Below are positions 2,006 through 20,000 of a stretch of DNA of 20,000 nucleotides, in pieces (positions within the stretch are counted from its first letter, which is position 1; each line of letters opens with the position of its first letter). The DNA comes from Chiloscyllium plagiosum. Its lineage: Eukaryota. The notes beneath the pieces were generated by a model, which did not search any database, was not told the origin of the DNA, and saw only the letters and a list, made by a program, of their open reading frames with translations. Both the position numbers and the translations under genes were made by a program. The DNA is taken from contig NC_057717.1 of NCBI RefSeq assembly GCF_004010195.1, positions 104,053,302-104,073,301 of the forward strand, given 5' to 3'.

Positions 2006-2149
2006 TGTTTGCGAGAGATTGAGAGCTCAGGCAGTGCTGAGCTGTCAGAGGCTGCTGTCCCGACCAAAGCCGGTGTCCAGCCTCTCAGGCAGAGGGAGAA
2101 AAATCCTTCAGGGTGAGCCTGAAGGAAAGCAGCGCCTCGTTTCCTGGTC

Positions 2150-2285
2150 ATGATGTGGAGGAGCCAGTGTTGGGCTGGGGTGGGCAGAGTTTAAAAATCA
2201 CACCGCACCAGCTTAGAGTCCAACAGGTTTATTTGGAAGCACTAGCTTTCGGAGCGCTGCTCCTTCATCAGGTGGTTGTTGTATG
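2150..2285 (-). mobile_element. Penelope-like terminal repeat fragment (family A) carrying a hammerhead motif
   Basis: Homologous to 5950-6040 (GGAG..GTGTTGG.CTGGGGTGG...AAAATCACA...AGTCCAACAGGTTTA.TTGGAAGC); contains a hammerhead core on the minus strand. Confidence 0.65.
2240..2274 (-). ncRNA. Minimal type-I hammerhead ribozyme motif (apparently intact)
   Basis: Minus strand reads CAC CUGAUGA A GGAGC agc GCUCC GAAA GCUA GUG. Stem I CAC/GUG, core CUGAUGA, stem II GGAGC/GCUCC, GAAA, palindromic AGCU as stem III, cleavage triplet CUA (cut between 2243 and 2242). Confidence 0.75.
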
Positions 2286-3833: not shown

Positions 3834-4260
3834 CAAAGGTCTTCACAGAGGGAAGGGTATGGACAGAAAGGAAATAAAGACAACTTTGTAAAGAGTGTCA
3901 GGGAAACAGAATAGAATGAATGAACAAATGAAAGAAACTGAGATGGCGGAAAGACCAAAGAAATGCAGAAGAATATCAAGTGAAGTTTACAAAAACTGGC
4001 CAAGTACACAGAGCAGAGTAAACAACCTGAAGCGATGAAGTGCAAAGGGAGTGAATGGCAAAAAAAAAGCTAAACAGACAGGGCAGGGAAATTGGCGCGC
4101 ACTCCGAGACACACACACATGCTGGTAGATGCAGACACACAAACAGAGAGACACATACTGATCGACGCAGAGAGAGAGAGACACATACAGACAGGGTATG
4201 GGAACCCATGCATACACCCACTGACATACTCGGAGACATGTGCAGAAACGCATACAGGCA

Positions 4261-4689
4261 CACAGAGAAGCAGACACACTCACAGCTATACGCACAGAGA
4301 AGCAGACACACTCAGCTATATGCACAGAGAAGCAGACACACTCAGCTATACGCACAGAGAAGCAGACACACTCACAGCTATACGCACAGAGAAGCAGACA
4401 CACTCACAGCTATATGCACAGAGAAGCAGACACACTCACAGCTATATGCAAGAGAAACAGACACACTCACAGCTATATGCACAGAGAAACAGACACACTC
4501 ACAGCTATACGCACAGAGAAGCAGACACACTCACAGCTATACGCACAGAGAAACAGACACACTCACAGCTATACGCACAGAGAAACAGGCACACTCACAG
4601 CTATACGCACAGAGAAGCAGACACACTCACAGCTATACGCACAGAGAAACAGACACACTCACAGCTATACGCACAGAGAAACCGACACA
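4261..4689. repeat. 32-bp minisatellite (about 13 units plus a partial)
   Basis: Unit GCACAGAGAA(G/A)CAGACACACTCACAGCTATA(C/T), with 30-31 bp variants; 13 GCTATA cores counted. Confidence 0.95.
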
Positions 4690-4728
4690 TGCACACTCCG
4701 AAATAGGCACGCACACACACGTCAGGAT

Positions 4729-4810
4729 CCTTTTAATGGATCCATACAATCAGCAGGAAAAGAGAGGGGAAAATGAGGCTCAGGAAAATCTTTTCTAGAG
4801 AGAGAGAGAG
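4729..4810 (+). repeat. Diverged direct repeat, copy B (partner 3757-3833)
   Basis: CCTTTTAATGGATCCATACAATCAGCAGGAAAA...CAGGAAAATC..(GA)n. Confidence 0.8.
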
Positions 4811-5530: not shown

Positions 5531-5650
5531 AACAAAGTCAGAAATTTGTTGGAAAAGCTCAGCAAGTCTGGCAGCGTCCGTGGGAAGAAATCACAGTTAA
5601 CATTTCGGGTTGAGTGACCCTCCTTCAGAACTGATAGTAGCTGGGAAAAT
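5531..5650 (-). mobile_element. Penelope-like terminal repeat fragment (family B)
   Basis: Homologous to 1905-2005 and 5755-5905; carries a hammerhead-like motif. Confidence 0.65.
5594..5633 (-). ncRNA. Hammerhead ribozyme-like motif (slightly decayed)
   Basis: Minus strand CAGUU CUGAAGG A GGGUC acuc AACCC GAAA UGUU AACUG. 5-bp stem I; substitutions in the core (A9>G), stem II and the stem III palindrome (CpG>TpG). Confidence 0.55.
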
Positions 5651-5754: not shown

Positions 5755-5905
5755 CCAGTAGAGAACTGTGGATGCTGTAAATCAGGAACAAAAACAGAAA
5801 TAGTTGGAAAAGCTCCGCAGGTCTGTCAGCATCTGTGGAGAGAAATCAGAGTTAACGTTTCAGGTCCAGTGACCCTTCCTCAGAGTAATGATAGCTGGGG
5901 AAAGG
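5755..5905 (-). mobile_element. Penelope-like terminal repeat fragment (family B), tandem to the previous copy
   Basis: Same orientation as and homologous to 5531-5650, offset 255 nt. Confidence 0.65.
5849..5888 (-). ncRNA. Hammerhead ribozyme-like motif (core intact, stem I weakened)
   Basis: Minus strand uuacu CUGAGGA A GGGUC acug GACCU GAAA CGUU AACUC. Intact CUGANGA and GAAA, 5-bp stem II, palindrome AACGUU, GUU triplet. Confidence 0.6.
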
Positions 5906-5949
5906 TCTTTTATGAACGGCTTCCTATCTAATAATATCTCCCTCAATAA

Positions 5950-6040
5950 TTTGGAGATGCCGGTGTTGGACTGGGGTGGACAAAGTTTAAAAAAATCACA
6001 CAACACCAGGTTATAGTCCAACAGGTTTAATTGGAAGCTA
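5950..6040 (-). mobile_element. Penelope-like terminal repeat fragment (family A), truncated at the hammerhead
   Basis: Aligns to 2153-2240; homology stops at TTGGAAGC (6038). Confidence 0.65.
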
Positions 6041-6139: not shown

Positions 6140-6702
6140 GTTTGAGGTCCCGCTGCATCTCAAAGCTTAGCAATCTCCCCTTACCGTATTTAAATAATAC
6201 ACTACGTTTTATTCTTTCTGCTGAAGTAGGTAGTTACATTTTTTTCCTGCTAAAATACATTTTTCCGTGCGTGCTCCATCCATTTGGTTTGATTTATTGT
6301 TGTCACGTGTACCTGAGTACAGTGAAACGTTCAGTTTTGTGAGCAGTACAGGCAGATCATAACAAACAAGGACACACAGACCATGGGTGCTCAGACAGAG
6401 CGAGGGTTGCAGGGTTATAGCTAAGCAGGAGGTGCACTATTCAAGATCAAGAAATTGTCAATATCTTTTTGTAATGTCCTTGTGTGCTCGTCACAATTTA
6501 CTTTCTGACCTATCTCTGTGTCATTAGTAAACTTGGCAGTCATTCATTCAGTGTGTATATCCAGAAAATGTTATATCAATTGCAGAGCTGTGTTTTTTAC
6601 TTGCTGCAATAGTTTTCAATGTGGTATCTTACCAAGTGCCTTTTGGAAATCTGGAAATTGAACATCTATTGGTTCCCCTTTAACCACAGCATGTTATCTT
6701 CA
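6140..6702 (-). mobile_element. Old CR1 RT-region fragments, interrupted by another LINE 3' end (~6285-6450); resumes at ~7010-7035 after a SINE
   Basis: Reverse-strand remnants of CR1 RT motifs (GEPIDV..DFQKA, KF.NDT); the sequence continues as AAAAACTCCAGGAGATTGG after the SINE. Confidence 0.55.
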
Positions 6703-7010
6703 TGGTGGCTCAGTGGTTAGCACTGCTCCCTCACAGCACCAAGGTCCCAGGTTCAATTCCAGCCTCGGGTGACTGTCTGTGTGGAGTTTGCACGTTCTCC
6801 CCGTGTCTGCGTGGGTTTCCTCCGGGTGCTCCGGTTTCCTCCTACAGTCCAAAGATGTGCAGGTTATGGTGGATTGGCCGTGCTAAATTGTCCGCAGTGT
6901 TAGGTACATCATTCAGAGGGAAATGGAACTGGGTGGGTTACTCTTCAAAGGGTTGGTGTGGGCTTGGTGGGCCGAAGAGTCTGTTCCCACACTGTAGGGA
7001 ATCTAATCTA
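6703..7010 (+). mobile_element. HE1-like tRNA-derived V-SINE
   Basis: A box TGGCTCAGTGG 6706-6716, B box GGTTCAATTCC 6750-6760, V-domain GTGTGGAGTTTGCACGTTCTCCCCGTGTCTGCGTGGGTTTCCTCCGGG, CR1-like 3' tail ending (AATCT)2. Confidence 0.9.
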
Positions 7011-10124: not shown

Positions 10125-10415
10125 TGGTCCAAAGATGCGCAGGTTAGGGTGAATTGGCCATGCTAAATTGCCCGTAGTGTTCCAGGGTGTGTAGGTGCAT
10201 TAGTCAGGGGTAAATGTAGGATATTAGGGTAGGGGAGTGGGTCTGGGTGTGCTAAATTGCCCGTAGTGTTCCAGGGTGTGTAGGTGCATTAGTCAGGGGT
10301 AATGTAGGATATTAGGGTAGGGGAGTGGGTCTGGGTGGGTTACCCTTCAGAGGGTTGGTGTGGACTTGGGCCAAAGGGCCTGTTTCGACACTCTAGGGAT
10401 TCTGTTTCTATTCTA
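10125..10415 (+). mobile_element. 5'-truncated HE1-like SINE inserted into CR1 ORF2, with internal 89/88-bp tandem duplication
   Basis: Homologous to 6847-7010; flanked by TTAC (10121-10124 and 10416-10419); duplicated units 10161-10249 and 10250-10337. Confidence 0.85.
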
Positions 10416-11495
10416 TTACGTCTTTGGTAAGGAAAGGATTCTGAGAGATAGGATGTATGACTATTTGGAAAAACATAGTTTGATTAAAGATAGTCAGCAT
10501 GGCTTTGTGAGGGGCAGGTCATCCCTCCCAAGCCTTATTGATGAAGGTTGAGCAGTGGATGTGGTGTCAGTGGATTTCAGTAAGGTATTTGATAAGGTTC
10601 CCCATGGTAGGCTCATTCAGAAAGTTAGGATTGGGATACAGGGAAATATGGCTATCTGGGTACGGAATTGGCTGGCCAAAAGAAGACAGCGAGTGGTAGA
10701 TGATGTAAAGTATTCCGACTGGAGCTCGGTGACCAGTGGTGTCCTGCAGGGATCTGTTCTTGGGCCTCTGCTCTTTGTAGTGTTTGTAAATGACTTGGAT
10801 GAGGAAGTGGAAGGCGGGTTAGTAAGTTTGCCGATGACACAAAAAGGTCGGTGGTGTTGTAGACCATGTCGAGGGCTATTATAGGCTGCAATATGTCATT
10901 GACACAATGCAGAGCTGAGCTGAGAAGTGGCAGATGGAGGTCAACCTGGTCAAATTTGAATGCTGAATACAGGGTTAAAGACAGGATTCTTGGAAATGTG
11001 AAGGAACAGTGGGATCTTGGGGTCCATGTACATAGATCCCTCAAAATTGCCACCCAAGTTTATATGGTTAAGAAGGCATATGGTGTTTTGGCCTCATTAA
11101 CAGGGGGATTGAGTTTAAGAGCCGTGAGGTTTTGCTGCAGCTCTACAAGTCCCTGGTGAAATCACACTTGGAATATTGTGTCCAGTTCTAGTCACCTCAT
11201 TATGGGAAGGATGTAGATGCTTTAGAGCGGGTGCAGAGGAGATTTCCCAGAATGCGACCTGGATTAGAGAGCATGTCTTATGAAGAGAGGTTGAGTGAGC
11301 TCTGGTTTTTCACACTGGAGAGAAGGAAGGGAGGTGACTTGGTTGGGGTGTACGGGGTAATGAGAGGCATAGATAGCCAGAGATTTTCCCTAGGGCAGAA
11401 ATGGCTGTCGTGAGGGGTCATTATTGTGAGGTGATTGGAGAGAGGTAGAGGGGAGATGTCAGAGGTAGGTTCTTTATGCAGAGAGTGGTGGGTGC

Positions 11496-11779
11496 ATGGA
11501 ATGCACTGCCAGCCGGTGGTGGTGGAGCTGGAGACATTAGGGACACTTAAGCGACTGCTGGACAAGCACATGGACGGCAGTAAATTGAGGGGTGAGTAGG
11601 TTAGGTTGACCTTAGATTGAGATAAATGCTCAGCACAATGGAATGCACTGCCAGCCGGTGGTGGTGGAGCTGGAGACATTAGGGACACTTAAGCGACTGC
11701 TGGACAAGCACATGGACGGCAGTAAATTGAGGGGTGAGTAGGTTAGGCTGACCTTAGATTGAGATAAATGCTCGGCACA
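11496..11779 (+). repeat. 142-bp tandem duplication in the CR1 3' end
   Basis: 11496-11637 and 11638-11779 differ at 2 positions by eye. Confidence 0.95.
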
Positions 11780-14454: not shown

Positions 14455-14760
14455 CTAATTACAATCCCTACAGTGTGGGAGCAGGCCATTTGGCCCATCG
14501 AGTTCATACTGTCCGTCTGAAGAGCATCCAACCCCCTGTAACCCTGCATTTCTAATGGCTAACCCACCTAGCCTGCACATCCCTGGACACTGGACAATTT
14601 AGAATGGCCAATCCACCCTAAACTCCACGTCTTTGGACTGTGGGAGGAAACCCACGCAGACATAAGGAGAATGTGTAAACTCCACACAGTCGCCTGAGGC
14701 TGGAATCAAACCCAGGTCCCTGGTATTGTGAGGCAGCAGTGCTAACCACTGTGCCACCCC
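14455..14760 (-). mobile_element. HE1-like V-SINE
   Basis: Reverse complement of GGTGGCACAGTGGTTAGCACTGCTGCCTCACA..GGTTTGATTCC..V-domain..CR1-like tail. Confidence 0.9.
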
Positions 14761-17478: not shown

Positions 17479-17784
17479 TTAGATTACTTACAGTGTGGAA
17501 ACAGGTCCTTTGGCCCAACAAGTCCATGCTGACCCGCAACCCACCCAGACCCATTCCCCTACATTTACCCCTTCACCTAAATCTACAGGCAATTTAGCAT
17601 GGCCAGTTCACCTAACCTGCACATTTTTGGACTGTGGAAGGAAACCGGAGCACCCGGAGGAAACCCACGCAGACACGGGGGGAATGTGCAAACTCCACAC
17701 AGTCAGTCGCCTGAGGCGGGAACTGAACCCGGGTCTCTGGCGCTGTGAGGCAGCAGTGCTAACCACTGTGCCACCGTGCCGCCC
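17479..17784 (-). mobile_element. Full-length HE1-like V-SINE
   Basis: Reverse strand starts GGGCGGCACGGTGGCACAGTGGTTAGCACTGCTGCCTCACAGCGCCAGAGACCCGGGTTCAGTTCC; V-domain with CpGs retained (young copy); tail GTAAGTAATCTAA. Confidence 0.92.
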
Positions 17785-18664: not shown

Positions 18665-18710
18665 GTGCATCAATGGATTTGTATTGGCTATGGACATGAG
18701 GAGATAGATA

Positions 18711-19568
18711 ATGGCTCAATATGGGAACATGACAGTCCTCTATCAAGGCTTTGTTAATGGCAACAGCAGCTCCCCGGCCAACAGCAGCCTCCTTCACAGT
18801 AGCCTATCCCAGAACAACACCAACCCTGTACTGTGTCCATGGAAGCCTACCAACTCGTCCATGGCTGTCGCTATTCCCAGCTTCTCAATGACTCTGGGCG
18901 CCTTGTCCAACATCATCGCCCTCGTCATCCTCATCAAATCCTACGCCCGGTTCCGCAGGCGTTCCAAGGCCACTTTCCTGCTCTTCGCCAGCAGCCTGGT
19001 GCTGACTGATTTTGTCGGGCATGTCATCCCTGGCGCACTGGTCCTGCGGCTCTACTCTGAGAACATCGTCAGCGCTGGGCCCATGTGCCAGTTCCTGGGC
19101 GGCTCCTTGGTGTTCTTTGGCCTGTGCCCGCTCTTCCTGGGCTGCATCATGGCGATCGAGAGGTGTGTAGGCGTCACCAAGCCCCTGCTCCACTCAGCCG
19201 TGGTGACCCCCACCAGGAGTAAGCTGGCCGTGCTCTGCCTTTGGCTGACGGCCGGGTTCGTCGCTTTCCTGCCCATCCTGAACTTCGGCCGATATGGCAT
19301 CCAGTGCCCAAGGACCTGGTGTTTCATCCGCCTGCGAGGCCCTGCCCAGCACTGGACAGAGGATGCCTTTGCCCTGCTCTTCTGTCTCCTGGGAGTGTTG
19401 GCCCTGTTGCTCTCACTGGTCTGCAACACTATCAGTGGAGTGACCCTCATCCAGGCCAGGATTAAGAAGCAGAATTGTAACCGCAGAGCAAAATCCCACG
19501 ACATCGAAATGGTCATCCAATTAATTGGGATCATGATGGTGTCCTGCATCTGCTGGAGCCCTCTTCTG
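18711..19568 (+). CDS. PTGER1: Prostaglandin E2 receptor EP1 subtype, main coding exon (N-terminus to end of TM6, 286 codons; partial CDS)
   Basis: EP1-diagnostic motifs TFLLF..SL..TD..GHVIPGALVLRLY, VFFGLCPL.LGC.MA.ERCVGVT.PLLH, Q.P.TWCFI, HD.EMV.QL.GIM.VSCICWSP. Strong Kozak context (A at -3, G at +4) with an in-frame upstream TAG. Donor CTG|GTGGGT at the TM6 intron position conserved in prostanoid receptors (phase 0). Confidence 0.92.
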
Positions 19569-19639
19569 GTGGGTATTGGCATTACAGTGCAGCATGTCAT
19601 CAGTGGGGAGGGCAGGGGAGGGCAGGTGGTGGTGGTGAG

Positions 19640-20000
19640 GATAAGCGACAGAATTCCAGAGCTCAGGGTCTGGGCTGGAGGAGGGGACAGAGATAAGGAG
19701 GGGGTGGAGGGGCTGGAGGAGGGGACAGAGATAGGGAGGGAGTGTAGGGGCTGGAGGAGGTTACAGAAATAGGGAGGGATATGGGTCTGGAGGAGGTTAC
19801 ACAGATGGGGAGGAGTGTAGGGACTGGAGGTCGTTGCAGATTTAGCAAGAGGTATGGGGCTAGAGGGGTTTACAGAGATAGGGAGGTGTATAGGAGCTAT
19901 AGGGGTCACAGATATAGGTAGGGGTATGGGGTGGAGTGGTTTACAACGATAAGGAGGGGTATCGGGCTGAAGAAGTTTTCAGAGACAGGGAGGGGTGTAC
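19640..20000 (-). repeat. G-rich 34-38-bp degenerate minisatellite derived from an L2 ORF2 segment (continues past window end)
   Basis: About 9 units of GGGGCTGGAGGAGGTTACAGAGATAGGGAGGGG.GTA. The reverse strand translates as PPYFCNLLQP / PPHLCNLLQ, and the adjacent reverse-strand CCCTGAGCTCTGGAATTC encodes PELWNS. Confidence 0.8.

Follow-up and report, generated by a model that had tools for sequence, protein, structure and literature searches.

A minimal hammerhead motif of probable Penelope-like origin in a very abundant ~131-bp repeat of Chiloscyllium plagiosum

In a stretch of 20,000 nucleotides of Chiloscyllium plagiosum DNA (contig NC_057717.1, positions 104,053,302 to 104,073,301 of the forward strand; hereafter the window), a minimal type-I hammerhead ribozyme motif was located on the minus strand at 2240..2274, close to the 5' end of one copy of a very high-copy interspersed repeat of about 131 bp (2149..2279). 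The motif is probably (a probability of roughly 0.7 is given to this reading) a genuine minimal hammerhead ribozyme (min-HHR) of the type carried by Penelope-like elements (PLEs), inherited from such an element; it would head a retro-copied unit, an old, neutral and probably inert copy of which stands at this site. The unit now ranks among the most frequent sequences of this elasmobranch lineage. The analysis followed up a description made from the letters of the window alone, referred to below as the sequence-only reading.

Sequence of the motif and its expectation by chance

The minus strand from 2274 to 2240, read directly from the window, is CAC CUGAUGA A GGAGC AGC GCUCC GAAA GC UA GUG, and the hammerhead described there by the sequence-only reading was recovered exactly, with all core bases, the stems, the AGCU and the CUA triplet. 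Its parts are the following.

2240..2274, minus strand: minimal type-I hammerhead motif, comprising helices I and II, the core and a palindromic AGCU (fold evaluated)
2274-2272 / 2242-2240, minus strand: helix I, 3 bp, CAC/GUG (sequence)
2271-2265, minus strand: CUGAUGA box, C3 to A9 (hammerhead numbering)
2264, minus strand: extra A between A9 and helix II (sequence)
2263-2259 / 2255-2251, minus strand: helix II, five Watson-Crick pairs GGAGC/GCUCC, starting with G10.1-C11.1 (sequence)
2258-2256, minus strand: loop 2, the loop of helix II (sequence)
2250-2248, minus strand: G12, A13 and A14 (hammerhead numbering)
2247-2244, minus strand: self-complementary AGCU (A15.1, G15.2, C16.2, U16.1) in place of a closed helix III
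2243, minus strand: A17, a permitted H17, completing the CUA triplet
2242, minus strand: G1.1
2242..2243, minus strand: predicted scissile bond, 3' of A17 and 5' of G1.1 (from hammerhead numbering only)

Every invariant base is present, namely C3 U4 G5 A6 N7 G8 A9, G12 A13 A14, the pair A15.1-U16.1 and H17; the cut that had been predicted between 2243 and 2242 agrees with the hammerhead numbering of the sequence. Helix I has three contiguous CAC/GUG pairs followed by a C-C mismatch, which is marginal, though inside the published range of 2-5 bp (4-5 bp in the Schistosoma mansoni min-HHR families, 2 bp in a Drosophila virilis variant, as far as these are described). For the 35-mer, the structure with helices I and II was predicted at -8.1 kcal/mol, the minimum free energy (MFE) structure being at -9.1 kcal/mol; a hand-drawn dimer with a shared 4-bp helix III came to -17.6 kcal/mol, and the predicted MFE of the dimer was lower (-25.5 kcal/mol).

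The boxes alone are commonplace: a loose search for CTGATGA-N14-GAAA with one mismatch allowed gave at least one match in 84 of 200 shuffles. The 35-mer as a whole matched the window at a single place with up to 3 mismatches, and 0/200 shuffles matched. A full descriptor was then defined by a helix I of at least 3 bp, 0-1 extra nucleotide, a helix II of 4-8 bp, GAAA, a palindromic 15.1-16.1 stretch and H17. This type-I search, which the sequence-only reading had proposed with an extra nucleotide allowed after A9, had a single match in the two strands of the window (40 kb) and no match in 80 Mb of simulated sequence (order-1 Markov, dinucleotide make-up of the window); the analytic estimate, by our own arithmetic, is ~7e-10 per base. 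The rarity of full-descriptor matches therefore argues that the motif is not a chance match.

Other structured-RNA assignments were tried and rejected. As a C/D-box snoRNA, with UGAUGA taken as the C box, the sequence gave a weak match to sR14 (E 0.51, 10.3 bits against a cut-off of 38) and had no D box at the 3' end; as a group II intron fragment it reached 11.3 bits against a cut-off of 34.5.

The repeat unit and its variation

The features of the repeat that are needed below are these.

2149..2279, minus strand: a ~131-bp copy of the very high-copy interspersed repeat (depth profile, loose ends, self-match)
5946..6038, minus strand: second copy of the repeat, without the hammerhead (84% identity over 93 aligned columns)
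2168..2225, minus strand: predicted long imperfect hairpin with an A+C-rich 3' arm (MFE of the 131-nt unit)
2266..2268, minus strand: ATG within the CUGAUGA box (A6 U7 G8), opening the frame MKEQRSES of 8 codons, then a stop

Contigs of three DNA runs (X1, X2 and X10; two from one organism, A, and one from a related organism, B) were aligned to positions 2080-2380 at 80% likeness, run X1 being so deep that some differences went uncounted. The contigs recruited were 48,950 (X1), 27,495 (X2) and 38,453 (X10), most of them 90-95% like the 2279..2149 copy (22,539/48,950 in X1). The summed depth was 6-8 million at 2223-2255 as against 12-22 in the flanks, and it returned to background to the left of ~2146/2149 and to the right of 2279; the repeat that had been put at ~135 bp is thus ~131 bp long by its depth profile (2279..2149). 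At face value the ratio of repeat to flank is of order 10^5, which is a ratio of depths and not a copy number; the number of contigs alone implies that the repeat is present in at least tens of thousands of copies. The suggestion that it might be abundant in sharks is borne out, to an extreme degree, for the source organism and one relative, the range to which the support extends.

The 5' ends of the repeat cluster at 2279, 2274 and 2273, and the 3' end is discrete at ~2149. At the 3' end of the 2279..2149 copy there is no poly(A) or microsatellite tail, and no target-site duplication was evident by eye around this copy. Records 9 and 16 of X10 bridge both repeat/flank junctions in organism B; the insertion is therefore orthologous and predates the split of the two organisms. 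Some contigs contain opposite-strand joints and tandem joints that go back into the unit, at depths of tens as compared with millions.

In a minority class of contigs (594 of 48,950 in X1) the eight bases directly upstream of ACCUGAUGA are the exact complement of A15.1..G1.3, and by pairing they would close off the core with a helix of 8 bp. A different class (973 contigs) extends beyond 2279 on the upstream side, with ~15 letters in common that are identical in 3/3 runs, so that longer versions of the element exist.

In the second copy in the window, at 5946..6038, the homology begins at unit position 40 (= G1.3), at most 2 nt from the predicted cleavage site. Such a start is what would be expected for cDNA made from cleaved RNA; it is a single case. 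Over the family as a whole, 2240 and 2243 have the same depth in each of the three runs, without a step at the predicted cut; copies that begin there do not, therefore, form a noticeable class. A separate 5' module, to which the ~100-fold lower depth of the 3' half (2146-2200) might point, was rejected as unsafe, because the 3' half is only ~80% like the 5946..6038 copy, which is the likeness cut-off used.

Counted from the A of the ATG in the box, the predicted cut falls at the 26th nucleotide and the end of the unit at the 120th. The frame is shut after its 8 codons by a TAG made of U16.1, A17 and G1.1, and the unit is therefore non-coding. A and C make up 71% of the final 42 nt of the unit (2190..2149), which lie in the predicted hairpin; this hairpin (2168..2225) is a candidate counterpart, by analogy of position and composition, of the AC-rich stem-loop that serves PLE reverse transcriptases as a start site. 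On the minus strand the 5' head of the unit (UGAUGAAGGAGC, 2265-2276) is complementary to its 3' end (GCUCCUCCACAUCA, 2151-2166), and folding prediction for the complete unit gives a panhandle that competes with helix II of the hammerhead.

Within 2240-2274 no alternative letter exceeds about 30% of depth. Alternative letters at 5% of depth or more are found at 8/35 motif positions (2240, 2243, 2250, 2251, 2255, 2256, 2257 and 2258): G1.3 to A at 2240 (~8%); A17 to U at 2243 (~7%), still a permitted H; variants of loop 2 at 2257 and 2258; and, at 2250/2251 and 2255/2256, two CpGs with transitions of the kind that methyl-CpG decay produces. No variant at this level falls in the CUGAUGA box or on the 5' strand of helix II, and most of the neighbouring repeat sequence outside the ribozyme is likewise free of them; the helix II variants that reach it (2255 and 2251) are on the 3' strand only, both at CpGs. 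The core CpG, C11.1-G12, is lost in 41-45% of depth (G12 to A, 17-20%), and the CpG at the edge of loop 2 and helix II in 38-42%; this equal decay of an essential and a non-essential CpG fits the neutral decay of dead copies.

Exact and degenerate patterns for the hammerhead and for the conserved downstream stretch gave 0 loci in viral, metagenome and genome contig collections. In the literature, two longer sequence strings of the family and its RNA-letter form were found in no paper, the matches of a 13-mer being unrelated, and a search on retrozymes in sharks gave only unrelated papers among those listed.

Relation to Penelope-like elements and competing explanations

Min-HHRs in the terminal repeats (pLTRs) of metazoan PLEs were defined by Cervera and De la Pena in 2014 (PMC4209133). 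According to that paper their recurrent features are large consensus families, an extra nucleotide after A9, G10.1-C11.1 and a palindromic 15.2-16.2; they are reported in fishes and reptiles as well as in coelacanth (~4,000) and Xenopus (~9,000); most are solitary and dispersed and are interpreted as truncated PLEs; self-cleavage was not detectable for single motifs and was weak for dimers. The shark motif shares with them the type-I layout with an open helix I, the CUGAUGA/GAAA core, G10.1-C11.1, one unpaired nucleotide between A9 and 10.1, a palindromic 15.x-16.x that implies action as a dimer, and the occurrence mainly as dispersed single motifs in large families. The palindromic stem III, which the sequence-only reading had given as a feature of PLE hammerheads, and the extra nucleotide, which it had noted for some natural hammerheads, match this published feature list as described there. 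The shark motif differs in having a helix II of 5 bp as against 7-8 bp in the S. mansoni families (PMC4209133) and a copy number that seems to be one to two orders of magnitude above the motif counts of coelacanth and Xenopus (PMC4209133), and its copy in the window is without a flanking PLE open reading frame (ORF). From the abstract through the early Methods of PMC4209133, cartilaginous fishes are not named. PLEs have been reported in sharks (10.1101/443036; PMC8455134; PMC4350176).

A further parallel is offered by PAc, a Poseidon element of Anolis carolinensis as described in PMC11167929: its ORF starts inside the hammerhead, with the cut 26 bp downstream; an AC-rich stem-loop 111-118 bp into the ORF is the place where reverse transcription begins; two start sites are separated by an optional 'tail' of 30-40 bp; and uncut RNA is the main template, no reads starting at the cut site. 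The shark unit resembles this description in the ATG in the box, the cut at the 26th nucleotide and the AC-rich 3' hairpin, and its lack of poly(A) is PLE-like as well; unlike PAc, its frame closes after 8 codons, leaving it non-coding, and the unit ends at +120. The comparison was made by description only and concerns a likeness of layout in another species, not homology. That no excess of depth is found at the shark cut site fits the finding of uncut RNA as the main template in PAc. Some of the shark contigs, at the low depths given above, have opposite-strand and tandem joints of the kind described for PLE insertions (PMC8557442).

The unit would accordingly be taken as a pLTR segment with one end shortly before the ribozyme and the other at the A+C-rich hairpin on which the PLE reverse transcriptase may begin to copy. 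It might be a minimal PLE retrotransposition product (made on a short template or left by extreme truncation), or else a non-autonomous element in its own right that makes use of the PLE enzyme. Two motifs of the source RNA would join by their AGCU palindromes in a shared helix III and would be cut after A17; cleavage there would probably be weak and assisted by protein, and the genomic copies would mostly derive from uncut RNA. The 2279..2149 copy itself is an old neutral insertion; as a lone monomer that has a helix I of 3 bp and lacks helix III, it is expected to be nearly inert catalytically.

Several results weigh against this explanation. Helix I, at 3 bp, is shorter than the 4-5 bp of the S. 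mansoni families described in PMC4209133. No Rfam hammerhead model reached its gathering score on the window, and none reported the motif at E<=10 on 301 nt or on 66 nt around it (the coverage of variants without helix III by these models was not checked), so that the covariance-model search suggested with the sequence-only reading came out negative. When the fold of all 131 nt of the unit is predicted, the ensemble probability of helix II is only ~9%, the head pairing with the 3' end. Random 5' truncation of a long PLE would scatter the ends, which are instead clustered at 2273/2274/2279. The linkage to a PLE reverse transcriptase/GIY-YIG ORF for which the sequence-only reading had advised a search is lacking in the window: a Pfam scan of 90/90 stop-to-stop frames of at least 70 aa detected no PLE ORF (TERT-like reverse transcriptase plus GIY-YIG), matching only a rhodopsin-type GPCR and one RVT_1 fragment. 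The frame of the ATG in the box, read through its two stops (X), gave no related protein, which is weak evidence. Variants at 5% of depth or more occur at 4/28 positions of the adjoining 2212-2239 and at 8/35 in the hammerhead, which is therefore not preferentially conserved; compensatory changes in helix I or II were not seen in the pile-up of the three DNA runs. Neither the core conservation nor the stem covariation by which the sequence-only reading would have judged the family is thus seen, the family data being a single pile-up of contigs, weighted by depth and built on one diverged copy, in which copies are neither counted nor aligned individually. Of the origin that had been suggested, a PLE terminal repeat or a short non-autonomous retroelement, the intact type-I motif and the abundant short repeat stand, while linkage to a PLE ORF and covariation are missing.

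The only reverse-transcriptase fragment of the window is the following.

10552-10884, plus strand: reverse-transcriptase fragment (Pfam RVT_1, 2e-9), relatives of which carry Exo_endo_phos

It was rejected as a PLE partner of the motif, since its relatives have AP-endonuclease domains and it lies 8 kb off on the other strand; from the Exo_endo_phos domain of the relatives, it is therefore a fragment of an AP-endonuclease, CR1/jockey-like LINE. The relatives include proteins annotated in several shark and ray genomes and also occur in a few bacterial assemblies that look contaminated.

Much of this counter-evidence would also be explained if the motif were a chance look-alike, that is, if an ordinary SINE- or LINE-derived repeat had acquired the boxes and the complementarity by accident, with neither ribozyme ancestry nor activity. 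The silence of the Rfam models, the absence of covariation and of extra conservation relative to the adjacent repeat sequence, the short helix I, the preference of the whole-unit fold for another structure and the frequency of the box pair by chance all speak for it. This explanation is nevertheless judged improbable: with no full-descriptor match in 80 Mb of simulated sequence, ~7e-10 per base is improbable for a family sequence of ~131 nt; the extra nucleotide after A9, G10.1-C11.1 and the palindromic AGCU coincide with the published min-HHR signature of PLEs and are not needed for the core; and the geometry of the ATG in the box, the cut site and the 3' end parallels that of a characterised PLE, PAc, as described.

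The other alternatives accept the ribozyme and differ in what they make of the unit. As a sub-variant of the PLE-derived reading, the 131-bp unit might itself transpose as a stand-alone ribozyme-bearing SINE or 'solo retrozyme' that parasitises PLEs, with its own 5' end and a hammerhead kept for processing or recognition, in the manner of the schistosome Sm-alpha or of vertebrate retrozyme monomers. Sm-alpha is described as a hammerhead SINE of Schistosoma (PMC6155905), and vertebrate non-LTR retrozymes, including monomers and one chondrichthyan case, are derived from PLE pLTRs according to a 2026 preprint (10.64898/2026.07.22.740005). With these elements (non-LTR retrozymes, PMC7229834 and 10.64898/2026.07.22.740005; Sm-alpha) the shark unit would share the character of a short non-coding retroelement with a type-I hammerhead, reliance on the reverse transcriptase of another element, 10^4-10^5 copies and a ribozyme that works best as a dimer, so far as those sources describe them. 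The discrete 5' ends at 2273, 2274 and 2279 and the discrete 3' end, a copy number that is huge beside the thousands of min-HHRs in coelacanth and Xenopus (PMC4209133), the absence of attached coding sequence and the pLTR descent of vertebrate retrozymes, monomers included, reported in the preprint are all in its favour. What defines retrozymes, as described, is however a tandem array, a canonical hammerhead with loop-loop contacts and a circular RNA; where 2 or more units in tandem, each with a canonical type-I hammerhead, would be looked for, the shark locus has a solitary unit with a minimal one. There is no tandem copy at the locus, tandem joints in the contigs are rare (tens as against millions), no pol III boxes or other promoter were identified in the unit, and copies that run upstream of 2279 with shared sequence indicate that longer versions exist. 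A stand-alone unit is accordingly held possible, with the balance tilted against it. Far less credible, and in our judgement very unlikely, is the exaptation of this particular copy for processing an antisense or upstream transcript of the neighbouring EP1 prostanoid receptor gene, after the manner of the conserved amniote intronic hammerheads. The copy does keep all core bases and both CpGs, each of which is lost in ~40% of family depth, and the insertion is kept at the same locus in the related species; but near-identical copies number at least tens of thousands, no dimer partner lies nearby (it is the only descriptor match in 20 kb, the second repeat copy being without the motif), single min-HHRs as published in PMC4209133 are without detectable self-cleavage, and where genomes evolve slowly, even neutral DNA is expected to persist in a close relative at ~93-95% identity, as this insertion does.

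Genomic surroundings and meaning of the repeat

18708-19772, plus strand: open frame, first coding exon of an EP1 (PTGER1)-like prostanoid receptor (Pfam 7tm_1, 6.9e-24)

The best solved-structure match of this frame was the prostaglandin E2 receptor EP1 (3.7e-79, chain residues 17-238). The hammerhead is antisense to it and 16.4 kb upstream. The sequence-only reading had placed the motif in an intron of PTGER1, which is not upheld: the only EP1-like coding exon, at 18708-19772, is the first coding one and lies downstream of the motif. The site could be in a 5'-UTR intron or in intergenic DNA; it would be intronic only if an untranslated first exon lay further upstream, and the window shows none. 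From a poly(A) single-cell raw-read RNA run (X22) 0 reads were aligned, which says nothing either way. For the neighbouring EP1 gene the 2279..2149 copy probably means nothing.

Further repeats were observed in the window. A family at 1941-1994, 5546-5588 and 5790-5843 lies near both copies of the hammerhead repeat in opposite relative orientation and is therefore not part of its unit. About 1.3 kb at 731-2084 are open in all six frames without a Pfam match and are C-rich, with repeats of ~43 bp of the type CACAAACCCTCC...; 4199-4737 is a tandem array with a period of ~32 bp (a 128-nt reference copy at 13 start positions, mostly 32 bp apart). A 142-bp tandem duplication at 99% identity is found at 11496-11779, and a 53-nt direct repeat (100% identity, 89-bp spacing) at 10161-10302. 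Another interspersed repeat occurs in both orientations at 6701-6866, 14683-14758 and 17613-17778 (166 nt, 89% complementary); it is probably a tRNA-derived SINE, its ends being tRNA-like by eye. G-rich tandem repeats of ~36-38 bp (19672-19986) start inside or just after the end of the EP1-like frame.

A more far-reaching interpretation, which we regard as rather unlikely, is that the repeat, far from being debris, is a dedicated and extremely successful hammerhead-headed mini-retroelement with a copy number of order 10^5, rivalling the axolotl retrozymes, in which the ribozyme is kept and in vivo cleavage has left a footprint. If this is true, transcripts with a 5' end a few bases before the ribozyme would be the templates, and the PLE reverse transcriptase would produce the element by starting on their first AC-rich hairpin; the PLE protein would depend on the fold of the ribozyme head, as a protein-assisted ribozyme or as a recognition element, and the head would be kept for that reason; and occasional copies that start at the cut site, such as 6038..5946, would be the footprint of cleavage in vivo.

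On the PLE-derived reading preferred here, the kind of ribozyme is already known, and finding it so abundant in sharks extends the picture in a useful, though not a surprising, way. The role of the minimal hammerheads of PLEs, described in 2014, is still unclear: in vitro the published ones show weak cleavage and insertion can do without them, and some very successful PLE clades lack them. A large family with defined ends and subfamilies in slowly evolving shark genomes would be a rich data set on the selection of the ribozyme fold in source elements, in which cleaved RNAs, if they ever serve as templates, should leave copies starting at G1.1. For annotation, a very common shark repeat would be labelled as PLE-derived and ribozyme-bearing.

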